Source of the DNA: Anaerolineales bacterium
GTDB lineage: Bacteria > Chloroflexota > Anaerolineae > Anaerolineales > E44-bin32
Direction: 5' to 3'
NCBI GenBank assembly: GCA_034430425.1
Contig: DAOUEK010000007.1
Location: 1,090-65,089, forward strand
Length of the DNA: 64,000 nt
Below, in pieces: positions 5,490 through 53,414 of the stretch. Under the pieces are notes generated by a model that worked only from the letters and a program-made list of their open reading frames with translations, did no database searches and was not told where the DNA came from. The translations under genes were made by a program, and so were the position numbers. Numbering within the stretch: the first letter of the stretch is position 1; each line of letters opens with the position of its first letter.

Positions 5490-6449
5490 TCAATCCCCTG
5501 CGGCTTCACTCCGTGTGGAGTTCCTTCCCACAAACCATGCTACCACAAACACCAGCAGGGTTCCCAGGACAACCGCAACGATTGTCGTCAGGACAGGATC
5601 TGAGATGATGGGCACCGTGTAATCCGGCAAGATCTCGTACGACGGATCGACTGCCAGATCGAGAAACCCTTTTTGTTCAGCGACGAATTCGAGGCCATCC
5701 GGATGCGACGAAGCCAGCGGGGAAAACAAGGCAACGACCAGCGCCAGGAGCAAACCTGCGGCGATGGCGTTTGCACCACGCCGACCAGGGGCGCCTTCGC
5801 CTTCTCGAAGCACACCGCTCGATGTGTTTTCCAATAAGACAAGCGCGCCGACGGTGATCACGCCTTCACCGATTCCAATCAAGGCATGCACGCCCGCCAT
5901 CGCCGGTAATCCCAGTTCGATCGGCGAGGTACCGGAAACTGCCAATTGCAGCGCTGTGGCCAAAGCAGCCACTTCAACGGAAAGCCAGGCGCCGGTAAAT
6001 GCCGCTGCCAGGTGAGAACGCTTTCCCTCTCCCGTCAATCGACGTATCAAGGAATAGGTGGCAATACCGACGAAAGCGGTGATAACTCCCATGTTGATGA
6101 TGTTCCAACCCATCACCAGCAATCCCCCATCCTGGAACAAGAGCCCCTGCATGGCGATCACCGCCGTCATGATCAATGTCGCGGCCCACGGTCCCAAGAG
6201 GATGGCGGCCAGGGCGCCACCCAGGAGGTGCCCCGAAGTGCCCGCCGCAATGGGGAAGTTTATCGCCTGTGCGGCGAAAATGAATGCCGCCAGGATACCC
6301 ATGAGGGGAACCTGCCGATCTCCCAATTGATCCCTCGTCTGGCGAACCGCAACGGCAATAAATACCAATGCAAGCACCCAGCCAGCGATGGCTACTGGTG
6401 TAGACAGAAATCCATCCGGAATGTGAAGCTTAACGGGTGATAACCACAT
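5490..6449 (-). CDS. cbiM: Ni/Co ECF substrate component CbiM/NikM fused to NikN-like PDGLE domain
   Basis: HIPDGFL, GTSGHLLG, HALIGIGEG and the C-terminal SSHPDGLE motif. Confidence 0.9.
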   Translation of the reverse strand: MWLSPVKLHIPDGFLSTPVAIAGWVLALVFIAVAVRQTRDQLGDRQVPLMGILAAFIFAAQAINFPIAAGTSGHLLGGALAAILLGPWAATLIMTAVIAMQGLLFQDGGLLVMGWNIINMGVITAFVGIATYSLIRRLTGEGKRSHLAAAFTGAWLSVEVAALATALQLAVSGTSPIELGLPAMAGVHALIGIGEGVITVGALVLLENTSSGVLREGEGAPGRRGANAIAAGLLLALVVALFSPLASSHPDGLEFVAEQKGFLDLAVDPSYEILPDYTVPIISDPVLTTIVAVVLGTLLVFVVAWFVGRNSTRSEAAGD

Positions 6450-6473
6450 GTGAAAAACCCTCCACTTTTCGAT

Positions 6474-6905
6474 TTAGCCCTCATCCTGGCAAGCGGCACA
6501 CAGACCAAACAACGTCAGGTGATTGGGGTCAACGTAGAAATTCGTTTCAGAAGCAACACTTTGTACGATTTGGGCGATGATATTCGGATCGATGTCGAAA
6601 ACCGCATGGCACTGCCTGCAGACCAGGTGTCCGTGTGGGTGATGCGGGTCGCGCATCGCAAAGAGGGCCGGGTTGGAACCATCGTTAAAAAAATCGACCA
6701 TCTCGGCTTCATGCAGCACTTCGACCGTGCGGTATACCGTGGCCAGGTTTAATCCAGGCAATTTTCTCTGCACATCAGCGTAGATATCTTGTGCGCAGAG
6801 GTGGCCATCTTTATGTGCGATGGTCTCCAGGATCACTGCACGCTGCGGCGTGACCCGGTACCCTTTCGATCGAAGTTCGTTTGCCAATCGCTCACCACAA
6901 GACAT
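6474..6905 (-). CDS. Fur-family metalloregulator (Nur/Zur-like by context)
   Basis: RVTPQRAVIL, LATVYRT, HHPHGHLVCRQC and C-terminal GLCAAC. Start set to ATG 6905 with AAGGAG RBS; the ORF-track N-terminal extension is probably spurious. Confidence 0.9.
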   Translation of the reverse strand: MSCGERLANELRSKGYRVTPQRAVILETIAHKDGHLCAQDIYADVQRKLPGLNLATVYRTVEVLHEAEMVDFFNDGSNPALFAMRDPHHPHGHLVCRQCHAVFDIDPNIIAQIVQSVASETNFYVDPNHLTLFGLCAACQDEG

Positions 6906-7096
6906 GTGCAGCTCCTTGCAGTTGCAAATTTTCGCAGATAGAATATCATTCTCCTCCCACCAAGTCAAGCGATGGCGGAATATAATCACCCTTAATCCAG
7001 GGACATCAGACGGGGTTCCACGGTACAATGGTAGGATATTAGAACCAAGTGCCCCAGAAAGGTTGGGAAGAAATTGCAAGTGTTAAGGAGTCATTC

Positions 7097-8383
7097 ATGC
7101 CGAAAGATACACTGACCATCACCGACAACCGCACAGGCAGAACTTACGAGCTGCCCATCAACCACAACACGATCCGCGCCATGGATTTACGCCAGATCAA
7201 GGTCAACGAAAGTGACTTCGGTATGATGAGTTACGATCCGGCGTTTATGAACACCGCATCTGCAAAGAGCACCATCTCGTACATTGATGGCTCCAAAGGC
7301 ATCCTGCGCTACCGCGGCTACCCGATCGAACAGCTTGCGGAGAAAAGCACCTACCTGGAGGTCGCCTACCTGCTGCTCAACGGAGAGCTTCCTACGCAAG
7401 AACAACTCGATGTCTGGGTTTCCGAAGTTACCTACCGCACTTTCATCCACGAGAATCTCCGGCGACTGATCCAGTCCTTCAGTCAATTTGCGCATCCGAT
7501 GCACATGTTCATCAGCACCCTGGCTGCCATGTCTTCCTACTATCCGGATGCCCGGCAGGTGGACGATCCCGAAGTGCGTCACCATCAAATTCGACGCATT
7601 ATCGCCAAAGTCCCTACGATCCTCGCCTACTCCTATCGGCACTTACAGGGTCTTCCGATCGTGATGCCCGACAACGATCTCACCTATTGCGGCAATTTCC
7701 TCAATATGCTCTTCAAGATGACCGAGACCAAATACACACCCAACCCCGTTTTCGAGCGTGCAATAGATGTGCTCTTCATCCTTCATTCCGATCACGAGCA
7801 AAACTGCAGCGCCAGTGTGATGCGCGCTATCGGATCGGGAAAAGCCGACCCCTTCTGCGCCTTAACAGGTGCGGCGGCATCCCTATCCGGTCCGCTGCAT
7901 GGCGGCGCAAATGAAGCTGTTCTCAGGATGCTCGAAGAAATCGGAAGCGTTGACAAGGTGCCTGCCTACATCGAACGCGTAAAGAAAGGCGAATTCCGTC
8001 TGATGGGATTTGGACATCGCGTGTATAAGAATTACGATCCGCGTGCAGCCATCGTCAAAAAGACTGCCGACCAGGTATTCGAAGTAACCGGGCGGAATCC
8101 GCTGCTCGACATTGCCCTCGAACTCGAACGCGTCGCCCTGGAGGACGAATACTTCGTCTCGCGCAAGCTGTATCCCAACGTGGACTTCTACTCCGGGATG
8201 ATCTACCAGGCGATGGGTTTACCGGTCGAGATGTATACCGTCCTCTTTGCGATGGGACGAACGGTCGGTTGGCTGACGCAATGGCAGGAGATGCTGGCTG
8301 ACCCCGAGCATCGCATCACCCGCCCGCGACAAATCTACACCGGCGCCGGCGAGCGGGTTTACGTACCGATCGAAAAACGCTAG
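7097..8383 (+). CDS. gltA: Citrate synthase (Si-type, GltA family)
   Basis: GILRYRGYP, HSDHEQNCS, GPLHGGANE, MGFGHRVYKNYDPRA and YPNVDFYSG. AAGGAG RBS precedes ATG 7097. Confidence 0.96.
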   Translation: MPKDTLTITDNRTGRTYELPINHNTIRAMDLRQIKVNESDFGMMSYDPAFMNTASAKSTISYIDGSKGILRYRGYPIEQLAEKSTYLEVAYLLLNGELPTQEQLDVWVSEVTYRTFIHENLRRLIQSFSQFAHPMHMFISTLAAMSSYYPDARQVDDPEVRHHQIRRIIAKVPTILAYSYRHLQGLPIVMPDNDLTYCGNFLNMLFKMTETKYTPNPVFERAIDVLFILHSDHEQNCSASVMRAIGSGKADPFCALTGAAASLSGPLHGGANEAVLRMLEEIGSVDKVPAYIERVKKGEFRLMGFGHRVYKNYDPRAAIVKKTADQVFEVTGRNPLLDIALELERVALEDEYFVSRKLYPNVDFYSGMIYQAMGLPVEMYTVLFAMGRTVGWLTQWQEMLADPEHRITRPRQIYTGAGERVYVPIEKR

Positions 8384-8479
8384 ATCGAACACGTTCACAA
8401 CACACTATCCATTTGACACAAAGGGGCAAGTTGGCGACATCATTTAACACACCGGCACCTATCAGCCATAAAGTACTCT

Positions 8480-8509
8480 TTGACAGGCAACCCTCATCCC
8501 ATGTATGAT
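8480..8509 (+). promoter_or_regulatory. Putative sigma70-type promoter (TTGACA-N18-TATGAT)
   Basis: Perfect -35 TTGACA at 8480-8485 and TATGAT at 8504-8509, about 50 nt upstream of the 8560 operon. Confidence 0.5.
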
Positions 8510-8559
8510 CATGGGCAGACGCGCTTGGTTGCCAGCATTAGACTTATCTTACGAGCGCC

Positions 8560-9171
8560 ATGGCATACATCCTGACAGGAAGCACTGCATTCGCCCTCAT
8601 CGCAATATACGACTGGGCTCAGATGCGCGAACATACCTGGCTCAAGCCGCTTTTCTTCCTGAGCGCGGCCGCCCTGGTCTTCGGCATCGCCGGAGTTCTC
8701 TCTGCACCATCCGAAAAAGAGTTCGTCTTATGGCTCCGAGTTGCAGCCGGGATCGGACTGGTGATATTCCTGCTGCTGCTGATTTACTCCGTCCTGATTG
8801 AGATTCCGTTAAAAATAAAACGCATCAAACACAAAACAGGCAGCAATAGCATTCTCATTGATACCGGCACATATACACTCACACGTCACCCGGGTGTGTT
8901 GTGGTTTGGCGGGGCTGCCGTCTGCATGATCTTGCTTCACCCCACCGTGCTGGCACTCAGCGCAAGTATTATATGGACGGCCCTGGACGTTTTATTGGTA
9001 TGGGTGGAGGATAGATTCTTTTTCCCAAACACATTTCCGGGCTACACTGAATACAAGATGAGAACTCCCTTCCTGATACCCAACCGGTCAAGCTTGCTCC
9101 AATGCTTGGCCACATGGAAAACCGACAACGAAAGAGAAAACGCAAGCTCCGATGTACATAATGAGCGATAA
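8560..9171 (+). CDS. ICMT/PEMT-like membrane methyltransferase-family protein
   Basis: Multiple TM helices; TGTYTLTRHPG and EDRFF...YTEYKMRTPFLIP resemble the isoprenylcysteine/phospholipid methyltransferase C-terminus. Confidence 0.65.
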   Translation: MAYILTGSTAFALIAIYDWAQMREHTWLKPLFFLSAAALVFGIAGVLSAPSEKEFVLWLRVAAGIGLVIFLLLLIYSVLIEIPLKIKRIKHKTGSNSILIDTGTYTLTRHPGVLWFGGAAVCMILLHPTVLALSASIIWTALDVLLVWVEDRFFFPNTFPGYTEYKMRTPFLIPNRSSLLQCLATWKTDNERENASSDVHNER

Positions 9172-9213
9172 CCTGCACTCAAGAGTAAACATTCTTATCG
9201 AGGAGGACATTCA

Positions 9214-10812
9214 ATGATCACCGCCAGAGAACTGCTGAAACAAGGCAAGCGCGATGAAATATGGGAGATGTATTGTGGATTTCTCGATTTGCGGCTTCCT
9301 GAATTTATAGAAATCCAACGGGAATTGCTGCTCGAACAAATTCAATTGCTCAGTCAGTGTGAGTTGGGGAGAAAATTACTCGGCAACCAAATCCCCCAAA
9401 GCGTAGCCGCTTTTCGCGAGAGCGTACCCTTGACCACATATGAAGATTACGAACCGTATCTATCGGAAAAGAATGAAGACGTTATGCCGAGCGAGATATT
9501 CGTTTGGGCGCGCACATCTGGAAAAACTGGCGGAGATACGTTCAAATGGGTTCCGTATTCGCGCAGTATGTATGAGCAGTTCGGTCGCCGGGTAATAAGT
9601 GCCATGCTCGTCGGCTCATGCAAGAACAAAGGTGAAGTACGACTCGAAAACGGAGATATTCTGCTGATGACCACAGCACCCCCTCCCTATATCTCCGCTT
9701 TTGTAAGTCGTTCAGCAGAGGAGCAAGCACCGGTGAGATTCATTCCATCACTCGCAGAGGGCGAAAAAATGGATTTCCAGGATCGCATCGAGAAGGGCTT
9801 TGAACTCGCCATCGTGGAAGGCATGGACTATTTCTACGGTTTGGCGAGTTTATTGGTGAAAATCGGCGAGCGCTTCGAACATGGTTCGGGCAGCATCTCA
9901 TTCAGCCGCAGCATGCTCAAACCCAACGTGCTCCTACGCCTTATAACTGGATTCCTCAAAGGGAAATTCAACCGCAGAGCGCTGCGGCCAAGTGACATCT
10001 GGAAACTCAAGGGAATCATGACCGGCGGAACCGATACCGATATTTACAAGGACCGTATTGAAAAATATTGGGGAATAAAACCACTCGAGGGTTATGGCTC
10101 GACGGAGGGCTTTGCCCTTGCCATGCAATTGTGGAACTTCAAAGGAATGACCCTCTATCCCGACACCAATTTCTACGAGTTCATCCCCTACGAAGAACAC
10201 AGCAAGAACAAAAAGGACCCTTCCTATACCCCAAAAACTATTCTCCTGGACGAACTACAACCCGGCATTTACGAGCTGGTCTTTACCAATTTCCACGGCG
10301 GAATCTTCACTCGCTATCGGATATTTGATTTAATCGAAGTGATTTCCCTGCGCGACGATGAACTCGATATCGATATTCCACAAATCCGATTCTACTCACG
10401 CGCTGACGACGTGATCGACCTCGCCGGAATGGTCCGTCTAACCGAAAAAACGATCTGGTACGCCATGGAATCCTCAGGTGTTCACTACGAAGATTGGACG
10501 GCCAGAAAAGAAGAGTTGAATGGTGAACCACTCCTGCATATTTACTTCGAAGAAAGTCGTCCCAACAACCGATCGTTGGAGGAGATCAAATCATCCATCA
10601 ACGAGGAACTCATGAAAGTAAGCAGTGAATATGCGGATCTGATAACCATGCTCGGTGGTGATCGCTTGAAATTAACCAGGCTGCCAACGGGCGCATTCGC
10701 CCACTATATGGAAGAACAAAAACAAGCCGGCGTCGATATGGGCATTCTCAAACCATCACGCATGCAGCCAGGCGAAGAGGCGATTCGCCGACTGATGCAA
10801 AGCATAGGATAA
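9214..10812 (+). CDS. GH3-family (ANL adenylate-forming) acyl-amido synthetase-like protein
   Basis: PLTTYEDY, TSGKTGG..KWVP, YGSTEG, FYEFIP, YELVFTN..G..RYRIFD motifs typical of the GH3 family. Confidence 0.85.
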   Translation: MITARELLKQGKRDEIWEMYCGFLDLRLPEFIEIQRELLLEQIQLLSQCELGRKLLGNQIPQSVAAFRESVPLTTYEDYEPYLSEKNEDVMPSEIFVWARTSGKTGGDTFKWVPYSRSMYEQFGRRVISAMLVGSCKNKGEVRLENGDILLMTTAPPPYISAFVSRSAEEQAPVRFIPSLAEGEKMDFQDRIEKGFELAIVEGMDYFYGLASLLVKIGERFEHGSGSISFSRSMLKPNVLLRLITGFLKGKFNRRALRPSDIWKLKGIMTGGTDTDIYKDRIEKYWGIKPLEGYGSTEGFALAMQLWNFKGMTLYPDTNFYEFIPYEEHSKNKKDPSYTPKTILLDELQPGIYELVFTNFHGGIFTRYRIFDLIEVISLRDDELDIDIPQIRFYSRADDVIDLAGMVRLTEKTIWYAMESSGVHYEDWTARKEELNGEPLLHIYFEESRPNNRSLEEIKSSINEELMKVSSEYADLITMLGGDRLKLTRLPTGAFAHYMEEQKQAGVDMGILKPSRMQPGEEAIRRLMQSIG

Positions 10813-10822
10813 TATTCGAGAT

Positions 10823-13498
10823 ATGTATTGGGGAATTAACACCGTCATTCCTCTGCTTGCCGCGCTGGCCTACGGCGCATTACTCACCATCGTTAGTCGC
10901 GCCAGGCCATTAACCAATGCCAGACGCGCATTCCGCGTTTACCTGCTGGCCATGTTCTTCTGGTCATTTGGCTCGTTCGTTAGCCACAGCGGCTTTGGCA
11001 ACACCTCCCACTGGGCGCGCCTGTTGTCCACAGCCGCGATTACTGCGCCGCTCACCATTTTCTACTTCGTCGAAAACACCCTGGATATTACGCACAAATG
11101 GGACCACTGGGCTTACCTCGTGGGTATTATCAATGCCGCACTCGCTCTCTTTACGAATCTCGTAGCGCCTTCGGCCGATATCTTAAACGGGGATTTGACG
11201 ATTGCACGCGGCTCGCTGGTCTATGTCGTAGCCATTCCAGGGTATGGATTGTTCATATACAGCCTGGTCATGCTTATCCAACGTTTTCGACAGTCCACAG
11301 ATCCTATCGAACACAACCGACTGCGCTATCTGATCTCCGGCACGACAATCGTGATCCTTACAACACTGGTCAACTTCACCGATCTGGCCAAATACCCAAT
11401 TGATATCGCAGCAAATCTCATCAACGCGATGCTCATTTCGTACGCCATCATCCGCCACGAATTGCTGGACATCAACATCGTCATCCGCAGAGGATTGTCG
11501 TACAGCACATTGATTCTCATCCTGGCCGCCACTTATGTTCTTCCCGTCATTTTCTATGATGTCCTCCATATTGAACTCGAGGTCAGCCAAACTGCGACCA
11601 GATTTACACTATCGTTCATCATTGCCTCCCTTGTTGCCATTGCCTCACACGCCCTCTACGGCAGGATTCGAGAACGCATCGATCGGTTTTTTTTTCGTGA
11701 ACGCTATGATGCCTACAAAGTCATCCAAGAACTGGGGGAGCAAATCACAGGCACACTTGATTTCGATCAAATCGTCTCCTCAATGCTGGATCGCCTCGTC
11801 GAAACCCTGCATCCAAAATGGGTTGACTTATTGCTCAAGGACCCGTCGACGGGTGATTTCCACCCAACAGCGTCAAGAGGTCTGGATGAAACGCTATCCG
11901 AATTTCACATGCGTGCAGATCACCCGATCTGCCGTTGGTTAGGTCGAGAAAACAGGATCTTAACCGCGCAGCAGTTACGTATCCATGCGTATTTCACCGG
12001 TATTTGGAATTTAGAAAAGGAGCAGCTTGAAAGACTCTCGCCCAATCTTTTCGTCGCCTTGCGTGTAAAAGACGGACTTAGCGGAATCTTGCTGATCGGG
12101 CCAAAGAAATCCGATGAGACGTACAGCCTCGAAGATATCGATCTCTATATAACCTATGCCAATCAGGTCTCTGTCGCTTTAGACAACGCTCATCTTTTTA
12201 AAGCGATCAATGCGCGTCTGGCCGAACAAATCGCCCTGCTCGAGATCGGCATCAGCCTGGCGCGCGCCTCCAATCTGGACGACATCCTGCAGCTGGTCGT
12301 CAAACACGCCTGTCCCACAGATACACCTACCGCCAAAGCGACCATTCACCTCATCGACCACGACAGCCAGCGTCTGCTGCCGCGCGCCGTTTCCCAATCG
12401 AGCGGTGAACCCGCCCAGGCCGTAGGCTTCGATCCCCGTCAAGGTATCGCCGGACGCGCCGTTCAAGAAAAGCAACTCATCTATGTGCCGGATGTGAACA
12501 AGGCACCCGATTTTGTCAACACGCAGGAGAATTTCAAGTCCCTGGTTGTAGTACCGCTCATCATCGAGGACATTCCGGAAGGCACGCTCAGTGTGACCAG
12601 CCCCCATATCGATGCCTTCGATGAAGACTTGATCCGTCAATTAACCTCTCTCGGCAACCAGGCCGCAATCGCCTTGCGCAAGGCCCAGATCACCGACAGC
12701 TTGCGAAAATCAAACGCCGAATTGGAACAACGCTCGAAAGAACTGGAAGCCAGCATCGAGGAGTTGAAGTCCACACAGCGGCAACTCGTTCAGGCCAGCA
12801 AATTGGCTTCCATGGGTACGCTTACCGCAGGAATAGCACATGAAATCAACAACCCCCTGGCCGGCATCAAACTCTTCGCGCAAAACACCAGACGTGCCCA
12901 AAACGAAGGTCGTCTCGAAACCGAGAAAATGCTTGAAAACATGGAAAAAATCAGCGCACTCGTTGACAAAGCTGCAAAGATCATCGAACACCTGCGCACC
13001 TTTTCCCGACAAGCCTCCGGCGACATGAAGTTGATCGGCGTAAATAAAGCCGTTGAGGACTCACTCAGTATGCTTCTCGAGCAATTGAAACTGCAGAACA
13101 TCGAAGTCCTTTTACAACTTGAAGAAAACCTTCCTCAAGTGCGCGGCGATATCAATCAGATCGAACAAGTCGTACTCAACCTGATCACCAACGCCCGTGA
13201 CTCTCTCGATAAAATTGAAGACAAGAAAATCTCGCTGCGCACATACCAAGACGACGAGTCGGTCGTCATTGAAGTCACTGACTCTGGGAGTGGAATCTCG
13301 CCTGATATTCTGGAGAACGTGTTCGATCCATTCTTCACTACCAAACCCGTCGATAAAGGAACAGGTTTGGGCTTATCGATCAGTCACGGGATCGTAGAAC
13401 TTCATGGCGGAGAAATCGAAGTTGAAAGTGAACCTGACAAAGGGTCCACATTCCGGATTAAATTACCCGCCGCGGAAGATGTAACAGGAAACGATTGA
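10823..13498 (+). CDS. Membrane sensor histidine kinase (N-terminal 7TM, two GAF domains, HisKA, HATPase; NtrB-like)
   Basis: Hydrophobic N-terminal third, GAF regions, [39 protein letters not shown]. Confidence 0.92.
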
Positions 13499-14205
13499 TG
13501 CAAGAGACAGCGCATATCCTGGTTGTAGATGACGAGCCTTCCGTTCGTGAAGGACTCAGCGATATGCTTTGCATTTGCGGCCATATCATCACCTGCGCCA
13601 ACGATGGCCAGGAAGGCCTGGGCCTGTTTCATAAAGCCCTCGAACGAGATGAGCTGCCTCCGTTCGATATTCTCATATTTGACATCAAAATGCCCCATAT
13701 GTCCGGGCTGGAGTTGATGGAGCGCGTCGTCAAGCTGGATCCGGAGATTCCCATCATCATCATCACCGGACACGGCGATTCACACACGGCCACCTACGCT
13801 CTGGCCGGCGGCGCCTATGATTACATCACCAAACCACTCGAACCCGATCTCGTGCTTGATGCAGTTACCCGCGCCCTGGCCATCGGCCGCTTGAAACGAC
13901 GCTTTAAAAGAATCATCCAAAATACCGGCGTCATCGGAGCGATCACATCCGGAATCGCCAACGAATTGGACACACCCCTGAACACGATAACGCGTTCTGC
14001 CGAAGAACTCTCCAAACATCTCAATCAAATCAAGCACCTCACCACGTTAACCTTACAGGCAGATGGGTCGCCAGAAGCCAATATCCCCATCGCAGATATC
14101 GACATGGACCCCGCATACAAACAAATTGAAACCATCACCCGCTCCGTACTACATTGCATTCGATTGCTCGAGGCGCTAAATATCCCTCAACCCCAGGACG
14201 ACTGA
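13495..14205 (+). CDS. Response regulator: receiver plus degenerate HisKA-like helical domain
   Basis: ILVVDDE, FDIKMP and YITKP receiver motifs; C-terminal GIANELDTPL resembles an H-box without His. ATGA overlap with the kinase. Confidence 0.85.
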   Translation: MMQETAHILVVDDEPSVREGLSDMLCICGHIITCANDGQEGLGLFHKALERDELPPFDILIFDIKMPHMSGLELMERVVKLDPEIPIIIITGHGDSHTATYALAGGAYDYITKPLEPDLVLDAVTRALAIGRLKRRFKRIIQNTGVIGAITSGIANELDTPLNTITRSAEELSKHLNQIKHLTTLTLQADGSPEANIPIADIDMDPAYKQIETITRSVLHCIRLLEALNIPQPQDD

Positions 14206-14596
14206 CTAGATACCCGAAAGACGAAAAACAGTTGTATATAATGGATCATGACGAATAGAAAAGCAGCTTTGCGCGGGAGCTATCCGTGCAGGCCTGATTG
14301 CCTCTCAGAAGCAAAACATGCGCGGTCACATTCGATATTTTTACACAGGATGACTTACCAAGAATTGGGTGACTTTCCCCACTAGGCGGGTCAACATTGT
14401 AACCTTCATGATTCTATGGAATACTAACCGCCAGCGCGGAGCTGAATTAACTCGCCAGTGCGGGAAAATTTGTATTGCGTTTCCCCTGGCCGGCGTTCAA
14501 GATAATGTAAAAATGAAGGGGAAAACGCGCAGAAGACAGGATAATAAAGACATAACACCCCCATAACCTAACCTTCGACCTTAGGAGGAAGACACA

Positions 14597-14932
14597 ATGG
14601 AAAAAATAGTGATCAATGTGCCATCCATGTATGCGGATCACCATGTTCTATCTGTCAGGAACGCGCTCGACGGCCTCGAGGGAATCGAAGATCTCTATGC
14701 CAGTTCGGCATGGAAACAACTGCTGATTACTTTTGACCCCAAGAAAATCAAACAAGCAAAGATCGAAGAAGCAATTATTGAAGCAGGGTACCCAGTCGAC
14801 GGTGCCGAACCAGCAGCGTTGGTTACCGCGAACGATATCAAGCGAGACCCGCAATGGCAAAAGCTCGGGTCTCGCTCCACGGAAACAAACATCGCGGATC
14901 TGAAGATGTCAGGCGAATTTCGTCGGTATTAA
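14597..14932 (+). CDS. HMA/CopZ-fold protein with non-canonical MYADHH motif, first gene of the CODH/ACS operon
   Basis: Pattern V.SM...HV..V..AL..LEGI...ITFDP...I..AI.EAGYPV matches CopZ; strong AGGAGG RBS; 9 nt before cooS. Confidence 0.8.
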   Translation: MEKIVINVPSMYADHHVLSVRNALDGLEGIEDLYASSAWKQLLITFDPKKIKQAKIEEAIIEAGYPVDGAEPAALVTANDIKRDPQWQKLGSRSTETNIADLKMSGEFRRY

Positions 14933-14941
14933 CCCAGGAGG

Positions 14942-16945
14942 ATGACAGCGATGGCAAAGAAAATGAGAACACCTGAAGAAGCGAGTCAAGATCAAGCCAC
15001 GATAAACATGCTTGCGTTTGCCCAGGAAATGGAATACGAGACTTCATTTTCCCGCGCAGATTCTATGGCCCCCTGCCCCATCGGCAGTGATGGAATCTGT
15101 TGTAAGGTTTGCGGAATGGGGCCATGTCGTCTGGTGAAGGATGGCCAGACCGGGATTTGCGGTGCAACCGTTGAGACCGTCGGGGCACGCAATTTCGCCC
15201 GTATGGTTGCCGCTGGCGCCGCAGCTCACTCCGACCACGGCCGTGATCTGGCCTACACACTATTGGCGGCTGCCGAAGGTCACGCTCCGGATTACCAGGT
15301 GCGGGACCCCGCTAAATTGAGAGAAATGGCCCATTATCTCGATGTTGAGGTAGATGGCAAATCATTGGAAGAACTCACTCTCGAAGTCGCCCGAAAAGCA
15401 CTGGAAGAATTCGGCAAGCCAACTGGTGAGGTCGCCTACGTCAAACGCGCACCTGAGAAACGACAACAAATTTGGCACGATCTGGGAATTACACCCCGCA
15501 ATGTCGATCGTGAAATCGTTGAGATCATGCACCGCACGCACGTCGGCAACGACCAGGACGCAGAACATATTCTTGACCAAGCCTTGCGTGCTGCACTGGG
15601 TGATGGATGGGGCGGATCGATGCTCGCCACCGATCTTTCCGATGTACTCTTCGGCACGCCCGGCCCGGTCCTTACCGAATCGAACCTGGGAGTTTTCCAG
15701 CCGGATGAAGTCAACATCGTCATCCACGGCCACGAGCCCACGCTCTCCGAGATGATCGTGGCCGCCGCGCAGGACCCGGAATTGATCGAGTATGCGAAAA
15801 CCAAGGGCGCCAAAGGCATCACCCTGGGCGGCATCTGCTGCACGGCAAACGAGACATTGATGCGTCAGGGCGTACCGCTGGCAGGCAACTTCCTGCAGCA
15901 GGAATTGGCCATCCTAACCGGAGCCGTCGAAGCCATGGTGGTCGATATCCAATGCATCATGCAGGGCATCGTGAAGCTCGCCGAACAATTTCACACCGAG
16001 GTGATCACCACATCACCCAAAGCGAAAATCACCGGCGCCACGCACATGGAATTCGATGAACACCGGGCCATGGAAATCGCCAAGGAAATCGTGCGAACTG
16101 CTTGCGACCGTTATCCCGAGCGAGGCGAAACTAAAATCCCCGATGAGCATACGCCCCTCATTCCTGGCTTTTCACATGAATACATCAACTATGCCCTGGG
16201 TGGTCTCTACCGCGGTTCGCTCCGGCCGCTTAACGACGCGATCGCTTCCGGGCGCATTCGCGGTGTCGTAGCCAATATCGGCTGCAACAACGCCCGCGTC
16301 TGCCACGACAAACTTCACCGCGAAGTTGTCACCGAGTTCATCAAGAACGACGTGCTCGTGGTCGAGACCGGCTGCGGCGCCATCGCCAGCGCCAAGCAAG
16401 GGTACATGACCCCCGAAGCGGCACTCGAACACGCCGGTCCGGGTCTCCGGGAAGTCTGTGAAGCCGTAGGGATCCCTCCCGTGCTTCACATGGGTTCCTG
16501 TGTAGATAACTCTCGGATCTTGACCGTACTCGCCCAGATGGCCACAGAAGGCGGCCTGGGAGAAGACATCAGCGACATCCCCGCCGTGGGACTGGCACCG
16601 GAATGGATGAGCGAGAAGGCCATCTCCATCGCCACCTACTGCGTTGCTTCTGGCGCCTATGTCATCCTGGGACACTCCAGTCCCGTCTCGGGCATCGAAG
16701 AAGTCACACGCCTGATCACCGACGGTTGGGAAGAGAAAGTCGGCGGCCGGTTGGAATTCTGCAACGCCAGCGACGAAATCGTTCGCCGAAGTCTGGCGCA
16801 CATCGATAAAAAGCGCGCCGACCTCGGACTGCCCGAATATGACCCAAGCAAATGGGGGAAGAGTGGTGATTGGAGAATCCATGAACTTGTGGAAATGCCG
16901 TTGCCCGAACGTATTGAAGCCGCATACGGCAACCAGGCGAAGTAG
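14942..16945 (+). CDS. cooS: Ni-dependent carbon monoxide dehydrogenase catalytic subunit (AcsA/CooS)
   Basis: D/B-cluster CPIG..GICCKVCGMGPC..ICGA; C-cluster ligands in HGHEP, GICCTANE, DIQC, IGCNN, TGCG, GSCVDN. True start may be ATG 14951. Confidence 0.97.
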   Translation: MTAMAKKMRTPEEASQDQATINMLAFAQEMEYETSFSRADSMAPCPIGSDGICCKVCGMGPCRLVKDGQTGICGATVETVGARNFARMVAAGAAAHSDHGRDLAYTLLAAAEGHAPDYQVRDPAKLREMAHYLDVEVDGKSLEELTLEVARKALEEFGKPTGEVAYVKRAPEKRQQIWHDLGITPRNVDREIVEIMHRTHVGNDQDAEHILDQALRAALGDGWGGSMLATDLSDVLFGTPGPVLTESNLGVFQPDEVNIVIHGHEPTLSEMIVAAAQDPELIEYAKTKGAKGITLGGICCTANETLMRQGVPLAGNFLQQELAILTGAVEAMVVDIQCIMQGIVKLAEQFHTEVITTSPKAKITGATHMEFDEHRAMEIAKEIVRTACDRYPERGETKIPDEHTPLIPGFSHEYINYALGGLYRGSLRPLNDAIASGRIRGVVANIGCNNARVCHDKLHREVVTEFIKNDVLVVETGCGAIASAKQGYMTPEAALEHAGPGLREVCEAVGIPPVLHMGSCVDNSRILTVLAQMATEGGLGEDISDIPAVGLAPEWMSEKAISIATYCVASGAYVILGHSSPVSGIEEVTRLITDGWEEKVGGRLEFCNASDEIVRRSLAHIDKKRADLGLPEYDPSKWGKSGDWRIHELVEMPLPERIEAAYGNQAK

Positions 16946-16959
16946 AGAGGGATAAAATT

Positions 16960-19254
16960 ATGTCACGTTACATTGCAACTCGCGCAATTCGAGGCGCTAA
17001 CGCCATCGTAGACGAAGCCGAGAAGGAACTCACCAAGGCGATTGCTGAGAAGGGTGGCGATACACCCGTTGCCTTCCCCAACACAGCCTATTATTTGCCC
17101 GTGATTCTCGGAATGCTGGGACACGAGGTCAGCAAATTGGCGGACCTCGAATTTGCACTGGACCACGCAAAAAGCTTACTCCACCCGATACCCGACGAAT
17201 CGCTCTGGACACCGTACCTCGGCGAGACACTGGACTCAGGTATGGCCACATTGCTCGCTGAAGAGATCATCGAGGGTGTCCGTTTCGTCTATGGACAAGA
17301 ACCCCAGCCCTACCCCGGGCTCGAATTGGCCGGCTCCACATCCTTCACCAGCCCCGACGCTGGAGGCAATGGCTCCAGCCCTAACGGAAATGGGTATCTC
17401 AATGGACCTATCGACGATATCCAACTGCGTTCTTGGGGAATCCAATTGGTTGATGGACGCATGCCGGGTTTCGCGGCCATCGCCGGCGCGGCGCATTCCA
17501 ATGAGGCCGCCGTCGCCATCGTTCGTGAGCTTCAAAAAAGGAACATCCTCACCTTTCTCGCGGGCAACGTCAATGGGCGTTCGATCATCGATCAATTGGT
17601 CGAAGAAGACGTGGAGATGGGCTACGACACATATATCGTTCCCTTCAGCCGCGACACCATCGGGGCCATCTACCCGCTGGGCTTCGCCACGCGATCCGCG
17701 CTCACCTTCGGGGGCATGAAGGGTGGTCAATGGCGAGATATCCTGCTCTACAATAAATTCCGAGTCTTCGCTTTCGTGATTGCCCTGGGCGAGGTCGACG
17801 ATCTTAAGTACGCCACAGCCGCCGGCGCGATTTCGTACGGATTCCCCGTAATCGCCGACACGGTGATCCCCGAAATTTTGCCCACCGGCGTGACGCGCTA
17901 CGAACATGTTATTTCCATGCCCTGGAACGAAATCGAAGGTGATACCGAAGAAGAGAAAGCCGCCAAGCTGGTCCAAAAAGCCATCGAGATACGCGGTGTT
18001 AAGGTGAAGATCAGCGAGGTCCCGGTTCCCGTTCCTTACGGATCGGCCTTCGAAGGCGAAGTGGTACGCAAGGCCGACATGCGCGTCGAGTTCGGCGGTA
18101 AACACAGCCGTGCGTTCGAATATCTCTACATGGATGATATGGACGCTGTCGAAGATGGAAAGATCGAAATCATCGGAGACGGTTTTGAAAAACTTGAAGA
18201 ACAGGGCAGTATGGATCTTTGCATTCTGGTTAAAGTCGCCGGACGCAAAATGGAGAAGGACTTCGAGCCGGTTCTCGAACGCCAGATTCACTACTTCGTG
18301 AATGGGGGATCCGGCATCCAGCACATCGGTCAGCGAGACATCACCTGGATCCGCATCAGCAATACGGCTGCCGAAAAAGGCTTCACCTTGAAGCACTTCG
18401 GCGACATCTTGCACGCGCGCTTCCATGATGATTTCGGATCGATCGTCGACAAGGTCGAAGTCGCCATCGTCACCGAACCCAAGGCGTATGCTGAGTGGCT
18501 GGAAAAAGCCCGCGCTGCCTACGACGAACGCAATCAACGCATCGGCGCAATGGTCGACGAGAGTGTGGAGACATTCTACTCCTGCACACTCTGCCAATCC
18601 TTCGCGCCGGACCACGTCTGCATCGTCAGTCCCGAGCGGCTCGGTCTGTGCGGCGCCTACAACTGGTTGGACTGCAAGGCCTCCCACCAGATCAACCCCA
18701 CCGGCCCGAACCAACCCATCAAGAAAGGCAATGACCTCGATCTGCAAAAAGGGTATTTCACCGGCATCAACGAGTACGCCGTTCAGGCATCACACGGCAG
18801 TGTCAACGAAGTCGCCATGTACTCCATCATGGAGAACCCGATGACGGCATGTGGCTGCTTTGAATGCATCGCCATGCTCATCCCTGAAGCCAACGGCATC
18901 ATGATCGTCAGCCGGGAGGACACCAGCATGACGCCAGCAGGCATGACCTTCTCGACTCTGGCGGGTGTGGCCGGCGGCGGACTGCAAACACCGGGTGTGA
19001 TGGGACACGGTAAGTTCTACATCACCAGCCCCAAATTCATTTCCGCCGACGGCGGATTCAAACGTGTGGTTTGGATGTCCTCCGTTCTGAAAGAACAGAT
19101 GGCGGAAGAACTCACCCAGGTGGCTGAGCGAGAAGGTGATCCGGGTCTGCTCGACAAGATCGCCGATGAAACCGTCTGCACCGATGTGGAAGGATTGCTG
19201 GAACACCTTCAAAAGAAGGGACATCCAGCACTCGAGATGGAACCAATGATGTAA
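16960..19254 (+). CDS. acsB: Acetyl-CoA synthase subunit (bacterial type with N-terminal domain)
   Basis: FPNTAYYLP; A-cluster ligands CTLCQSFAP, LCGAYNWLDC, TACGCFEC. Confidence 0.97.
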   Translation: MSRYIATRAIRGANAIVDEAEKELTKAIAEKGGDTPVAFPNTAYYLPVILGMLGHEVSKLADLEFALDHAKSLLHPIPDESLWTPYLGETLDSGMATLLAEEIIEGVRFVYGQEPQPYPGLELAGSTSFTSPDAGGNGSSPNGNGYLNGPIDDIQLRSWGIQLVDGRMPGFAAIAGAAHSNEAAVAIVRELQKRNILTFLAGNVNGRSIIDQLVEEDVEMGYDTYIVPFSRDTIGAIYPLGFATRSALTFGGMKGGQWRDILLYNKFRVFAFVIALGEVDDLKYATAAGAISYGFPVIADTVIPEILPTGVTRYEHVISMPWNEIEGDTEEEKAAKLVQKAIEIRGVKVKISEVPVPVPYGSAFEGEVVRKADMRVEFGGKHSRAFEYLYMDDMDAVEDGKIEIIGDGFEKLEEQGSMDLCILVKVAGRKMEKDFEPVLERQIHYFVNGGSGIQHIGQRDITWIRISNTAAEKGFTLKHFGDILHARFHDDFGSIVDKVEVAIVTEPKAYAEWLEKARAAYDERNQRIGAMVDESVETFYSCTLCQSFAPDHVCIVSPERLGLCGAYNWLDCKASHQINPTGPNQPIKKGNDLDLQKGYFTGINEYAVQASHGSVNEVAMYSIMENPMTACGCFECIAMLIPEANGIMIVSREDTSMTPAGMTFSTLAGVAGGGLQTPGVMGHGKFYITSPKFISADGGFKRVVWMSSVLKEQMAEELTQVAEREGDPGLLDKIADETVCTDVEGLLEHLQKKGHPALEMEPMM

Positions 19255-23862: not shown

Positions 23863-24630
23863 ATGACAAAAATCATTGCAATCGCCGGCAAAGGCGGCAC
23901 GGGGAAAACAACGCTCGCTGCGCTGCTCATTCAAACATTGAGTCAACGCCTGCCCGGTCCGCTTCTGGCGATCGATGCAGACCCGGCCACGAATTTGCAT
24001 ATGGCACTCGGAGTGCCCAGGCCGGAAACGGTTGGAGAAATCCGTGAATTGATGTCCGAAACAGCGCAGGCCGGTGAGCTCGGCGTTTCGATCAGCCGCC
24101 ATGATTATCTAAATCGCGAGGTGCGCCTGGCCATCGAAGAGGGAGAAACCATCGATTTGCTCGCCATGGGGCGGCCGGAAGGCCAGGGTTGTTACTGCGC
24201 CGTTAACCACATGCTGCGGCAAATCGTGGACGAGATCGGCCGCACATACGACACCATCATCATCGACAACGAGGCCGGTATGGAACACATCAGCCGACGC
24301 ACGACTCGCGATGTCGATCTTCTCTTGCTCATCACGGATCCCACCTTGCGCGGTGTGCGCACTGCAGCTGAAATGGCACAATTGGCAGAAACGCTTGAAG
24401 TAAACGTCAAACGCACACAATTGATCGTAAATCGGGTTAAAGGGGAAATGCCGCAGCCATTGCAGGATGCCATCGATGAGTTAGGTCTCGAGATCGCGGC
24501 ACTCATTCCTGCTGACGAGAATATCAACCGACTCGACGCACTGGGGATGCCGCTCGTGCAACTTAATGGAGATTCACCTGCCGCCCAAGCAGTAGAGCAA
24601 TTAATCGAACGGATTGTAAGCGAGCTCTAA
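23863..24630 (+). CDS. acsF: CooC/AcsF-type Ni-insertion ATPase
   Basis: IAGKGGTGKT, IDADP, GRPEGQGCYCAVN, DNEAGMEHISR; sits inside the acs cluster. Confidence 0.88.
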   Translation: MTKIIAIAGKGGTGKTTLAALLIQTLSQRLPGPLLAIDADPATNLHMALGVPRPETVGEIRELMSETAQAGELGVSISRHDYLNREVRLAIEEGETIDLLAMGRPEGQGCYCAVNHMLRQIVDEIGRTYDTIIIDNEAGMEHISRRTTRDVDLLLLITDPTLRGVRTAAEMAQLAETLEVNVKRTQLIVNRVKGEMPQPLQDAIDELGLEIAALIPADENINRLDALGMPLVQLNGDSPAAQAVEQLIERIVSEL

Positions 24631-24665
24631 TCGAACTACGTATTTCATACGACAGGAGAAGGTTA

Positions 24666-25589
24666 ATGTACAAAATCGGAGAGAACATCCATATCGTCTC
24701 ACCGAAGGTGAAGGAAGCCCTCAAAGATCGCGATGGGGGATTCTTCGTCGACCTGGCCCGCCGGCAAAAAGAAAGCGGTGCGGATGTGATCGACTTAAAC
24801 ATCGGGCCGCGAAAGAAGGATGGCCCTGAAGTCGTTGATTGGCTGGTAGACTGCATGCAGGAAGCCGTTCCGGGCATGACCCTGAGTTTCGACACCACCA
24901 ATCTGGCGGCTATTGAAACAGGACTGAAACGAGTGGGATCGAACGCCATGGTCAACTCCACCTCCGCCGAAGAAGAACGCCTGGCGAACGTACCACCCCT
25001 GGCAGCGAAGTACGACGCAAAAATGATCGCACTGTGCATGGAGAAGAGCGGCATTCCCGTCAGTGCAGATGAGCGCGTTGGCATCGCCATGGAAAAGCTC
25101 ATTCCTCGTGCCCAGGAAGTGGGTATCCCGATGGAGAATCTGTATGTCGATCCATTGATCCTCACCGTTTCCGGATGCCAGGAATACGTGCCCGAATCGA
25201 TTGAGACCATTCGCATGTTGAAGATGGTCATGGATCCGCCGCCGATGACGACTGTGGGACTATCCAACGTATCCAACCAGGTTCCCAATGATATGCGTCC
25301 ACTCATCGATCGTGTATTTGTCGTCATGTTAATGGCCGTCGGCTGCGACTCGGCGATCCTCAATCCGCTTGACAAGAAATTGACCGACACCATCAAAGCC
25401 GTCGAGGTCCGCGATGAGAGCACGCCGGTCAAAGCCCTGAATCTGAAGATTTTCGACGCAGTAGCTGCCATGGAGGAACCGACCGAAGACTTGGTGGATA
25501 TGTCGGATCCTGACCAGGTTGAAATCTGGAAAACGGTCCAGATTCTACTCAACAAGGTTATTTACGCAGATTCGTATTTACGGCTGTGA
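24666..25589 (+). CDS. acsE: Methyltetrahydrofolate:corrinoid/Fe-S protein methyltransferase
   Basis: Pterin-binding TIM barrel motifs IGENI, DLNIGP, SFDT, VNSTS, DPLIL, GLSNVS; operon context. Confidence 0.9.
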   Translation: MYKIGENIHIVSPKVKEALKDRDGGFFVDLARRQKESGADVIDLNIGPRKKDGPEVVDWLVDCMQEAVPGMTLSFDTTNLAAIETGLKRVGSNAMVNSTSAEEERLANVPPLAAKYDAKMIALCMEKSGIPVSADERVGIAMEKLIPRAQEVGIPMENLYVDPLILTVSGCQEYVPESIETIRMLKMVMDPPPMTTVGLSNVSNQVPNDMRPLIDRVFVVMLMAVGCDSAILNPLDKKLTDTIKAVEVRDESTPVKALNLKIFDAVAAMEEPTEDLVDMSDPDQVEIWKTVQILLNKVIYADSYLRL

Positions 25590-30491: not shown

Positions 30492-31490
30492 ATGCCAGCA
30501 GCGAAGGAATTGAATTATAAGTTTCGCTTCGTTCGCAATAAAAACGCCATTGGATTATTCGCCAAAAAAGCCACCGCTACAGACCGGGAATTAATCCTCG
30601 CTAAAGAACCAATCGACTACGCCGACATCATTAACAGCACCTGCCGAGATCAACGCATTGCTCTTTCAATCGCGCCGGAAGCAACTTTAGGCGAAAATAC
30701 GCGCAAAGCCCTCCAGGCAGATCAGATTTTGGTCCTGGAAGTCTCCCAAGGTAGAACCAATGACCTGGAGAGGCACATTGATCGTGCATCCTCGGCGATT
30801 CAAGCCGAGCAGCATCGTCAGGAACTGATCAACGCTGGCAAAGCCAACCGCTTCCACAGTATCCAATGTTCAAATTGTCAGGCAACTATTGATCTCTCGG
30901 ATTTCAACCGTACGTCTTACGTTTATTGTCGATACTGTGAATCGATCATCAAATCAAGCGGTGAGATTGTCACACCCGGCGATTCATACCGCATTTGTGA
31001 TGAATGCGGAATGTTCGATCGCGTCCGAGAGTATACCCACTTCAACTTCTATTTTCTACTTGTTGTTTACGGTTTTTCCTACCACCGCGTTCATGTCTGT
31101 GATAACTGTGCCGTGCATCTAGCCAAACTCGCGCTGCCGCGAAACCTGGTCTTCATCCTGGGTGTACCCTCGGCAATCTACATGTGGATCAAAGCCATTA
31201 CCGGGCGTGATCCTTCTCTGCGAGCCTTAGCCAAGGCCAACGCCCTCGCCCGCAAAGGGAAATTCAAAGAAGCGGATGAAATCTACGTCCAATTTGCTGG
31301 ACCATACCCCGAACATCCCGCGCTGCTGCGCAACCGCAGTCTTGGACATCTCTACGGAAACAACCTCAATGCCGCCGCCAGTCTGCTCAGCCGCTCGCTT
31401 AAATCCTGTAACAACTACCTACCATCGTTACAACTTGCACGCCGGTTGAAACAGGCTGCTTCGAAAGTCAAAGAACCCAATCACATCTAA
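30492..31490 (+). CDS. Hypothetical protein with two Zn-ribbon CxxC pairs, TM hairpin and C-terminal TPR-like helices
   Basis: CSNC..CRYC, CDEC..CDNC, hydrophobic segments, helical A/L-rich tail; GAGG RBS. Confidence 0.7.
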   Translation: MPAAKELNYKFRFVRNKNAIGLFAKKATATDRELILAKEPIDYADIINSTCRDQRIALSIAPEATLGENTRKALQADQILVLEVSQGRTNDLERHIDRASSAIQAEQHRQELINAGKANRFHSIQCSNCQATIDLSDFNRTSYVYCRYCESIIKSSGEIVTPGDSYRICDECGMFDRVREYTHFNFYFLLVVYGFSYHRVHVCDNCAVHLAKLALPRNLVFILGVPSAIYMWIKAITGRDPSLRALAKANALARKGKFKEADEIYVQFAGPYPEHPALLRNRSLGHLYGNNLNAAASLLSRSLKSCNNYLPSLQLARRLKQAASKVKEPNHI

Positions 31491-52657: not shown

Positions 52658-53414
52658 GCAACCATATATTTTGATCGTGGACGACGATCCGGATATCGTC
52701 GAGGGGATTACCGCCGTGCTGGAAACGCGAGACTACCGCCTTGCCAGCGCTGGCGATGGCATTGCCTGCATGAAACTTATCCGGGAGAAGACCCCAGATT
52801 TATTGATCCTGGACATGATGATGCCGCGCATGGACGGTTTCGCCGTCATCCGCGAGCTTCGCGGCGATCCGAAGTATGTTGGTCTGCCCATCATTATTCT
52901 CACCACGGTCATTGAAGATGCCGCCTACCGCCGCTATGAACTTGAGACAGGGCTGGCTATGGATGTGCAAGCCTATATCGAGAAACCGGCACCGCCGGAT
53001 GTGTTGCTGCGCCACGTCACAGCGGTAGTCGATCTGCCCTATATTATTGTCGCCGATGACGACCCGGATATCGTTGCCGCGCTTACCACGGTCCTTGAAT
53101 CCAGGCCCTATCGGGTCAGCTCGGCCGCCAACGGTCAGAGCTGCATCGAACTGGTGCGCAAGCGCAAACCCGATCTACTCATCCTGGATTTACTCATGCC
53201 GCACATGGATGGTTTTGCCGTGATTCGCGAGCTGCGCAGCGAACCCCAATTTACCGATCTACCCATCATCATCCTCACTACCGTGGTTGAAGATGCCAGC
53301 CGCCGGCGTTACGAACTCGAGACGGGTCAGGACATGGCTGTTACACGATACATGCAGAAACCCGTGCCACCCAAGATGCTGCTCAAGCAAGTGAATGAGG
53401 TGTTGAAAAAATGA
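52650..53414 (+). CDS. Tandem REC-REC response regulator without output domain
   Basis: Two near-identical receivers (VDDDPDI..LLILDMMMP..EKP and ADDDPDI..LLILDLLMP..QKP); GAGG-rich RBS before ATG 52650. Confidence 0.9.
   Translation: MREQPYILIVDDDPDIVEGITAVLETRDYRLASAGDGIACMKLIREKTPDLLILDMMMPRMDGFAVIRELRGDPKYVGLPIIILTTVIEDAAYRRYELETGLAMDVQAYIEKPAPPDVLLRHVTAVVDLPYIIVADDDPDIVAALTTVLESRPYRVSSAANGQSCIELVRKRKPDLLILDLLMPHMDGFAVIRELRSEPQFTDLPIIILTTVVEDASRRRYELETGQDMAVTRYMQKPVPPKMLLKQVNEVLKK

Follow-up and report, generated by a model that had tools for sequence, protein, structure and literature searches.

Plant JAR1, a member of the GH3 family of acyl-acid amido synthetases, makes the receptor ligand jasmonoyl-isoleucine (JA-Ile). 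Apart from OlsH, bacterial GH3 proteins have, to our knowledge, no known role. A 64,000-nucleotide stretch of DNA from an uncultured Anaerolineales bacterium (assembly GCA_034430425.1, contig DAOUEK010000007.1), referred to here as the window, carries a GH3 gene within a four-gene cassette, with a membrane methyltransferase gene upstream and the genes of a receptor histidine kinase and a receiver protein downstream. With a probability of roughly one half, the methyltransferase and GH3 cooperate with the input portion of the adjacent receptor, formed by nine membrane helices and a first GAF domain (GAF1), such that the cassette makes and reads a small lipid-like molecule.

The window enzyme shares with JAR1 and the other plant GH3 proteins its family and the nucleotide-binding motifs, as well as the idea of a GH3 product acting as a receptor ligand. 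However, the similarity is distant, and the receptor is here a bacterial membrane protein encoded next door that is predicted to bind the enzyme. OlsH, a bacterial GH3, converts a fatty acid, ornithine, and ATP to N-acyl ornithine, and its gene shares an operon with that of an N-methyltransferase (PMC12493201). The OlsH-OlsG-OlsI ornithine-lipid operon of Singulisphaera acidiphila is similar to the present locus in that a bacterial GH3 is encoded with a methyltransferase. In contrast, that operon includes an OlsI-type acyltransferase, whereas the constant partner here is a receptor with nine transmembrane helices and a GAF domain (9TM-GAF), and the phyla differ (PMC12493201 and PMC12971839).

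Two signaling systems offer further points of comparison. In the Phc system of Ralstonia, the methyltransferase PhcB makes methyl 3-hydroxymyristate, which is sensed by the PhcS kinase; a methyltransferase for a lipid-like signal is thereby encoded with a membrane histidine kinase and receivers, a gene arrangement that resembles the one in the window (PMC8578825 and PMC11960443). Phc has no GH3, and its sensor family and outputs are different. The ComQXPA pherotype loci of Bacillus subtilis are similar in that strong divergence affects the signal genes along with the sensory portion of the kinase, whereas the regulator and the flanks are conserved. They differ in employing a peptide pheromone and an isoprenyl transferase, and the divergence seen here separates species of one genus rather than strains (PMC4408185 and PMC4008528).

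A pattern scan with one genome per species recovers 118 confirmed GH3 relatives, the best 80 loci of which were kept. The sample covers Chloroflexota, Bacillota, Izemoplasmatales/Mycoplasmatota, and Spirochaetes, with loci from Anaerolineae, Dehalococcoidia, Erysipelotrichaceae, Lachnospiraceae, Oscillospiraceae, Alkaliphilus, Lactonifactor, Izemoplasmatales, and two Spirochaetes. Neighborhoods were read by local tblastn, crude calling of open reading frames (ORFs), clustering, and a tally script, the exceptions of which were checked by hand. Of the 71 loci that have 1 kb or more of sequence downstream of GH3, 70 encode a 9TM-GAF receptor directly 3′ of it and in the same orientation (69 by script, plus L077 added by hand). 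In the sole exception, L053, the downstream gene encodes a class I methyltransferase, and a 7TM/GAF gene lies a few kb further on, on the opposite strand. On the other side, 75 loci have 700 nucleotides or more of upstream sequence, and in 69 of them the gene directly 5′ of GH3 encodes a methyltransferase, 37 of these enzymes being soluble class I (UbiE-like) and 32 membrane-bound and ICMT-like. Among the 68 loci for which both sides could be assessed, 63 have the complete trio (59 by script and 4 rescued by hand), and the window cassette has the same makeup, with the methyltransferase 5′ of GH3, the 9TM-GAF receptor 3′, and all three on a single strand. No fourth conserved gene, be it a transporter, acyltransferase, or thioesterase, emerges from the clustering, where the next largest cluster comprises 8 loci.

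The enzymes and the receptor also co-occur. Of 41 related genomes, 7 encode a full GH3 and one more has a copy truncated at a contig end; strong matches to the nine-helix domain are found in exactly the 7 with a full GH3. The source genome of the window harbors a single copy of each cassette gene. A fusion of a class I methyltransferase to GH3 exists in two protein clusters (e.g., P0050); this fused form and the non-homologous replacement of the methyltransferase together underline the need for methylation. No GH3 fused within larger proteins (932-2660 residues) was found, which is weak evidence by the nature of the search. The initial annotation had proposed checking whether the linkage of GH3 to its sensor is conserved; it is, and the neighborhood counts support GH3, methyltransferase, and membrane receptor as a conserved functional unit. 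We read it as a widespread enzyme-plus-receptor cassette not previously described in the literature: no paper on a GH3-methyltransferase-9TM/GAF cassette was found in a search whose coverage excluded subscription journals, and the literature found on HisKA_7TM, the Pfam family of the membrane domain, merely names the domain. We know of no ligand for the HisKA_7TM sensor domain.

In the receptor, conservation is confined to the 9TM-GAF input. The 67 receptors with a typed output comprise 29 with HD_5 (HD-GYP) only, 24 with GGDEF and HD_5, 2 with GGDEF only (one of which is cut by a contig end), and 12 with HisKA/HATPase, such that 55 of 67 harbor outputs for cyclic di-GMP (c-di-GMP) while the window receptor is among the 12 kinase types. 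The GYP motif is present in 13 of 13 sampled receptors, and GGEEF is intact in 4 of 7 sampled GGDEF receptors. In a quick-search GH3 phylogeny (70 rows, LG+G4), output type and methyltransferase type each switch at least three times. The window genus forms a 4-row clade (99% support) inside a clade of 32 rows (100% support), the other members of which have HD-GYP outputs and class I methyltransferases; the window copy, in contrast, pairs an ICMT-like methyltransferase with a kinase output. What had been noted as a GH3-kinase linkage is therefore kept as a receptor linkage, but the constant partner is the 9TM-GAF input module rather than the kinase. A constant input and a constant enzyme pair combined with interchangeable outputs indicate that the enzymes are part of the input.

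The cassette and its parts are arranged as follows (positions of the window):

8480-8509, + strand: sigma-70-type promoter, TTGACA-18-TATGAT, with a TG ahead of the -10 hexamer (11/12 matches)
8560-9171, + strand: ICMT/PEMT-like integral-membrane methyltransferase, 203 residues, putatively S-adenosylmethionine (SAM)-dependent
9214-10812, + strand: GH3-family acyl-acid amido synthetase, 532 residues, with putative catalytic activity
10823-13498, + strand: receptor kinase HisKA_7TM-GAF-GAF-HisKA-HATPase, 891 residues
10823-11692, + strand: nine-helix membrane domain of the receptor (HisKA_7TM and two further helices), residues 1-290, from Pfam, hydropathy, and the model
11693-12202, + strand: GAF1, the predicted GH3 docking site, residues 291-460 (GAF fold, Z 17.6)
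12269-12676, + strand: GAF2, residues 483-618 (GAF_2, 79.8 bits)
12812-13498, + strand: HisKA and HATPase_c transmitter, residues 664-891 (38.4 and 99.1 bits)
13495-14205, + strand: receiver protein, 236 residues

The promoter, the four co-oriented genes, their gaps, and their domains agree with the initial annotation in the ORF listing, promoter scan, and domain scan. The intergenic gaps in the ORF listing are 42 and 10 nucleotides, followed by an overlap of 4 nucleotides; should the receiver start instead at the ATG at 13498, the overlap is 1 nucleotide (TGATG), and the receivers of relatives begin with MQETAH. A GAGGAGG ribosome-binding site precedes the GH3 gene. The promoter scan as a whole is without enrichment (5 sites vs 6.6 +/- 2.8 in shuffles). 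The site ahead of the cassette is retained in 5/5 genus loci, though the surrounding spacer is poorly conserved, with an invariant -35 hexamer and a -10 hexamer of TATGAT, TATTAT, or TATCAT.

The 532-residue protein is a member of the GH3 family but not an OlsH. Its Pfam GH3 N-terminal (45.7 bits) and GH3_M (41.3 bits) matches are both over the cut-off of 23.6, while GH3_C (19.5) is under it. The sole PDB matches are plant GH3 enzymes, with JAR1 (5ech) at E 1.3e-7 over approximately 150 residues; the JAR1 entries matched are, we presume, complexes with glutathione transferase. Positions T101, G103, K111, E292, Y294, E298, R367, Y368, R369, and D372 are invariant in 24 sequences. These include all of the nucleotide-binding motif positions (T101, G103, K111, Y294, E298, Y368, R369, and D372), which belong to what we take to be the GH3 nucleotide-binding motifs, a P-loop-like TSG..G..K, Y..TE, and YR..D.

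The upstream protein is accepted as an ICMT/PEMT-like membrane methyltransferase. On its own, the 203-residue sequence yields sub-threshold ICMT and DUF1295 matches (DUF1295 at 16.5 bits vs a cut-off of 20.4). Family membership is nevertheless supported, as had been proposed for this gene, because a profile built from 28 homologues matches the ICMT structure 4a2n (E 1.1e-8, 146 positions) with the G.Y...RHP stretch aligned; the same profile matches 5v7p at E 7.6e-4. Residues G103, Y105, R109, H110, P111, G112, Y162, and Y165 are invariant in these 28 homologues. Some homologues pass the PEMT cut-off of 25, such as those in L072 (36.6 bits) and L064 (31.7 bits). Hydropathy and the family alignment both identify the window enzyme as an integral membrane protein.

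Within the receptor, the HisKA_7TM model (PF16927) scores 39.6 bits vs a gathering threshold of 28.6 over residues 11-217, and it is matched in 31 of 57 scanned receptors. Its earlier description as a 7TM sensor agrees with this Pfam match, which covers seven helices, but hydropathy and the AlphaFold model show nine. The model of residues 1-460 has a mean predicted local distance difference test score (pLDDT) of 83.7; in it, the nine helices and the GAF domain are accompanied by a beta hairpin at 117-128. In a fold search, residues 292-460 match GAF structures with a root-mean-square deviation (rmsd) of 3.4 over 163 aligned residues at Z 17.6. Residues 1-227 superpose on seven-helix bundles resembling G-protein-coupled receptors (GPCRs) (Z 15.5, rmsd 3.9, 207 aligned), a fold likeness only, and barely above the level that helical bundles reach from their arrangement alone. 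The search of the receptor model gives no functional pointer beyond the GAF fold and the generic GPCR-like bundle, with helices 8-9 barely covered.

Two side observations concern relatives of this receptor. Three Chloroflexota loci (L049 3134-5836, L050 4309-7218, and L092 3922-6888) encode a second 7TM-GAF paralogue just 5′ of the methyltransferase, placing the enzyme pair between two receptors. Tandem arrays of proteins of approximately 410-550 residues occur at G036:C1:3818149-3837170 and also in G011, G027, and G033, genomes that lack the cassette GH3. The array proteins match receptor helices 5-9 weakly (E 1e-12 to 1e-6), and this looks like a separate expanded membrane-protein family.

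A direct contact between the enzyme and the receptor is predicted. A complex prediction of receptor residues 1-460 with GH3 scores 0.69 (runs 0.68, 0.69, and 0.69), compared with 0.00 for the best of 3 controls; 116 of 157 solved complexes attain the 0.69 mark, as do 2 of 215 mismatched pairs. At least 93% of contacts recur between the runs, and the partner has a pLDDT of 78 or higher. In GH3, the predicted interface comprises N-terminal helices at residues 2-41, as well as 118, 316-317, and 361. On the GAF1 side, residues 366, 368, 371, 383, 386-390, and 392-396 contribute, located on helices between strands 2 and 3 and including the invariant P368 and W395 (91% conserved). The GH3 interface is more conserved than the remaining protein (mean entropy 1.28 vs 1.82, one-sided p 0.02), with G22, D25, L26, I34, L38, E41, and P316 at least 90% conserved over 70 rows. 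The modeling thus supports binding of GH3 to GAF1 at the level of a prediction. We know of no solved GH3-GAF complex.

Within the genus, the enzymes and the sensor part of the receptor diverge together. Amino acid identities per gene part between the window and three congeneric genomes are given below in the order G001 / G005 / G002:

Methyltransferase: 58 / 61 / 60%
GH3: 58 / 63 / 86%
Receptor residues 1-430: 50 / 57 / 80%
Receptor residues 431-891: 90 / 83 / 84%
Receiver: 94 / 87 / 89%
Median of the other window genes: 87 (n=35) / 84 (n=36) / 82 (n=10)%
8500-12100, + strand: fast-diverging block from this within-genus comparison, covering methyltransferase, GH3, nine-helix domain, and GAF1

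Nucleotide identity to L027 is 49-67% over 8800-12100 vs 89-95% over 12400-14200. The dip spans 8500-12100, and identity recovers inside the kinase gene near residue 425, at the end of GAF1. Because the four genus alleles are each other's nearest relatives on the GH3 tree, the block diverged in place and was not imported. The pattern seen here resembles that of quorum-sensing pherotype loci such as comQXPA (PMC4408185). In ComQXPA, polymorphism stops inside comP. The gene linkage and this pherotype-like divergence are what bears on a possible quorum-sensing role of the cassette.

The favored reading, in which the enzymes make what the receptor reads, has its direct basis in gene linkage, output swapping, methyltransferase replacement, co-occurrence, and the divergence pattern, to which the predicted GH3-GAF1 contact is added. 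It would proceed in four steps. GH3 would adenylate a carboxylic acid, probably a lipophilic one, and couple it to an amino acid or amine. The product would then be capped by the methyltransferase, and the capped small molecule would serve as the ligand of the membrane/GAF1 module. With GH3 docked on GAF1, synthesis and sensing would be physically coupled. In this genus, the receptor is a histidine kinase, which would pass phosphate to a receiver harboring a DHp-like domain that lacks the histidine. We infer the chemistry and the direction of information flow; the product would be an N-acyl amino acid derivative, which may leave the cell.

A more far-reaching version is possible but less likely than not. 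GH3 would be the stably docked catalytic subunit of a GPCR-like nine-helix/GAF receptor at which a methyl-capped, lipid-like acyl-amino-acid is made or processed. Enzymes and sensor would co-diversify into lineage "dialects", serving as private channels of uncultured anaerobes that feed c-di-GMP signaling or a phosphorelay.

Several observations weigh against the make-and-read interpretation. Diffusible signals are not usually made by a synthase that sits on its own receptor, and a classical synthase of such a signal would have no need for the predicted docking. The complex prediction used author-built, unpaired alignments, and on the receptor side conservation at the interface does not exceed that of the remaining GAF1 (entropy 2.26 vs 2.26, p 0.62). 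The majority of the sequences stem from metagenome-assembled genomes, and 6 of 75 loci (L039, L042, L053, L059, L074, and L093) are without a recognized upstream methyltransferase. The match of GH3 to the OlsH equivalog model NF052613 reaches 50.4 bits vs a cut-off of 620 and is limited to residues 30-152; because this score is so far under the cut-off, the OlsH substrate is not transferable to the window enzyme. In the comparison with G002, the methyltransferase is the sole outlier. Beyond the genus, the divergence dip is present in L018/L043 and L018/L090, mild in L024/L028, and absent in L017/L029 and L016/L019, so among the informative pairs it appears in one further lineage only; nine further locus pairs had non-homologous flanks and were uninformative. 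Finally, the CODH gene downstream of the cassette is also mosaic within the genus, as seen against G001, so recombination is common in the region.

The alternative that survives best reverses the direction of information flow, treating the enzymes as an output. The nine-helix domain would sense an external or membrane cue, GAF1 would switch GH3, and the kinase or c-di-GMP domain would act as a parallel output; in a variant, GH3 would be a trigger enzyme whose substrate-bound state is read by the receptor without a dedicated signal. The predicted direct contact on the GAF1 helices between strands 2 and 3 would suit such a switch, as would the fact that the conserved receptor part is exactly the part predicted to touch GH3 together with the membrane domain. 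However, the near-constant presence of a methyltransferase that can be replaced by a non-homologous one is left unexplained, and the joint fast divergence of enzymes and sensor part is not readily accounted for. We consider this arrangement somewhat unlikely.

It is also unlikely that the cassette is an aminolipid pathway of the OlsH-OlsG type, in which a methylated N-acyl amino acid lipid would be a structural part of the membrane and the receptor would monitor the membrane or lipid for homeostasis rather than for communication. OlsH, the only characterized bacterial GH3, stands in an operon with the lipid N-methyltransferase OlsG (PMC12493201), which is related to phospholipid N-methyltransferases (PMC12971839). 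Both types of cassette methyltransferase match lipid methyltransferase families, PEMT and PmtA, and that of the window is an integral membrane protein. In contrast to the OlsH operon, no fourth gene is conserved, whether for an OlsI-type O-acyltransferase or otherwise, which would leave the product with a single chain, and the window GH3 misses the OlsH equivalog score. The orders listed as holding OlsH homologues in the review PMC12971839 omit Anaerolineales and the Bacillota orders. Moreover, genes for a structural lipid are not expected to outpace their flanks in divergence.

The initial annotation had gone further and proposed a quorum-sensing circuit in which the kinase and receiver gate transcription of the adjacent Wood-Ljungdahl (acs) genes. 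The neighbors on which this rests are as follows:

7049-8383: citrate synthase, left neighbor of the four-gene cassette
14597-14932: HMA gene, first right neighbor
14942-16945: CODH
16960-19254: ACS

The cassette had been placed approximately 390 nucleotides before the CODH operon, and the distance from the receiver end to the HMA gene preceding CODH measures 391 nucleotides. Within the genus, the cassette is always located between citrate synthase and HMA-CODH-ACS (window, L027, and L038). The + strand shows no terminator-like site 3′ of the receiver gene, so transcription may read through into the acs genes. However, HMA-CODH-ACS follows the cassette in 2/2 genus loci with enough downstream sequence and in 0 of the other loci. 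The acs adjacency is genus-specific local synteny and not part of the system. A permissive Rfam scan of 8000-15200 detects no RNA family in the 391-nucleotide spacer, and hence no riboswitch or leader.

The Response_reg match of the receiver scores 89.4 bits, and the acidic pocket (D12, D13, and D63) as well as T91 and K113 are invariant across the genus alignment. Together with the kinase, it has the makeup of a two-component system: a HisKA domain with its H-box His, identified in the alignment of the kinase DHp region, HATPase_c, and a receiver with acidic pocket, Thr, and Lys. No DNA-binding output domain is present, as no Pfam family is matched in residues 131-236. The C-terminal 106 residues are instead 26% identical to the DHp region of the kinase (E 1e-4) and may pair with the kinase DHp domain; the nearest Atlas clusters are REC+HisKA proteins without an ATPase domain. 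Other kinase-type cassettes employ OmpR-type regulators or a REC-PAS-GGDEF-EAL protein beside unrelated genes, and the majority of receptors have c-di-GMP outputs. With the acs linkage confined to the genus, a receiver lacking a DNA-binding domain, and no RNA element in the spacer, gating of Wood-Ljungdahl expression by the cassette is unsupported, and the full circuit as first proposed is improbable.

Covalent adaptation in the manner of CheR/CheB, in which GH3 would amidate and the methyltransferase methyl-esterify receptor carboxyls, is highly improbable: both enzyme types can act on carboxylates and a GH3-receptor contact is predicted, but we know of no GH3 enzyme that modifies proteins, soluble and membrane methyltransferases are unlikely to reach one receptor site, and the predicted interface comprises the GH3 N-terminal helices with no receptor carboxylate in the active site.

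The cassette ties bacterial GH3 to the HisKA_7TM sensor in several phyla. Its carriers include Lachnospiraceae and Erysipelotrichaceae of the gut as well as Anaerolineae, which are abundant in digesters and sediments. If the cassette enzymes make the receptor's ligand, the product would be a new class of bacterial signal, mostly wired to c-di-GMP, and a bacterial parallel to plant hormone conjugation by GH3. In that case, the role of bacterial GH3 and the ligand of HisKA_7TM would both become testable with three genes taken from cultured carriers, among them Pelolinea submarina MO-CFX1, Alkaliphilus transvaalensis, and Lactonifactor longoviformis.

Further observations concern the receiver and its relatives. 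The DHp-like helix pair at the receiver C terminus (13885-14202) has Asn at the phospho-His position, and Lys in two congeners. The whole receiver is 86-94% identical across the genus, above most neighboring genes. In L048 (11859-14886), the genes of a stand-alone receiver and of a REC-PAS-PAS-GGDEF-EAL protein come after a cassette of the kinase type, so c-di-GMP can be fed by a kinase version as well.

The surroundings of the cassette contain several features of their own. CODH forms a second mosaic block (window 14800-17200) with 67-83% nucleotide identity to L027, while the adjacent ACS is at 91-95%; the sequence comparison suggests recombination within the acs cluster. The small HMA-domain (CopZ-like) protein at 14597-14932 lies directly before CODH, is conserved there in congeners, and may act as a metal chaperone for nickel enzymes. 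Upstream of the cassette, the - strand of 5490-7079 encodes a fused CbiM-CbiN protein for cobalt or nickel uptake, together with a Fur-family regulator whose N terminus is extended by 60 residues. Two ORFs of approximately 330 residues, at 24563-25555 (- strand) and 30492-31490 (+ strand), have no Pfam match at E 1e-5. Paralogous ORFs of approximately 1,520-1,540 residues at 46257-50879 and 53411-57973 harbor several pyridine-nucleotide-disulphide oxidoreductase, GltD-like, and 4Fe-4S domains, and are unusually long fused flavin/iron-sulphur proteins near the acs genes.

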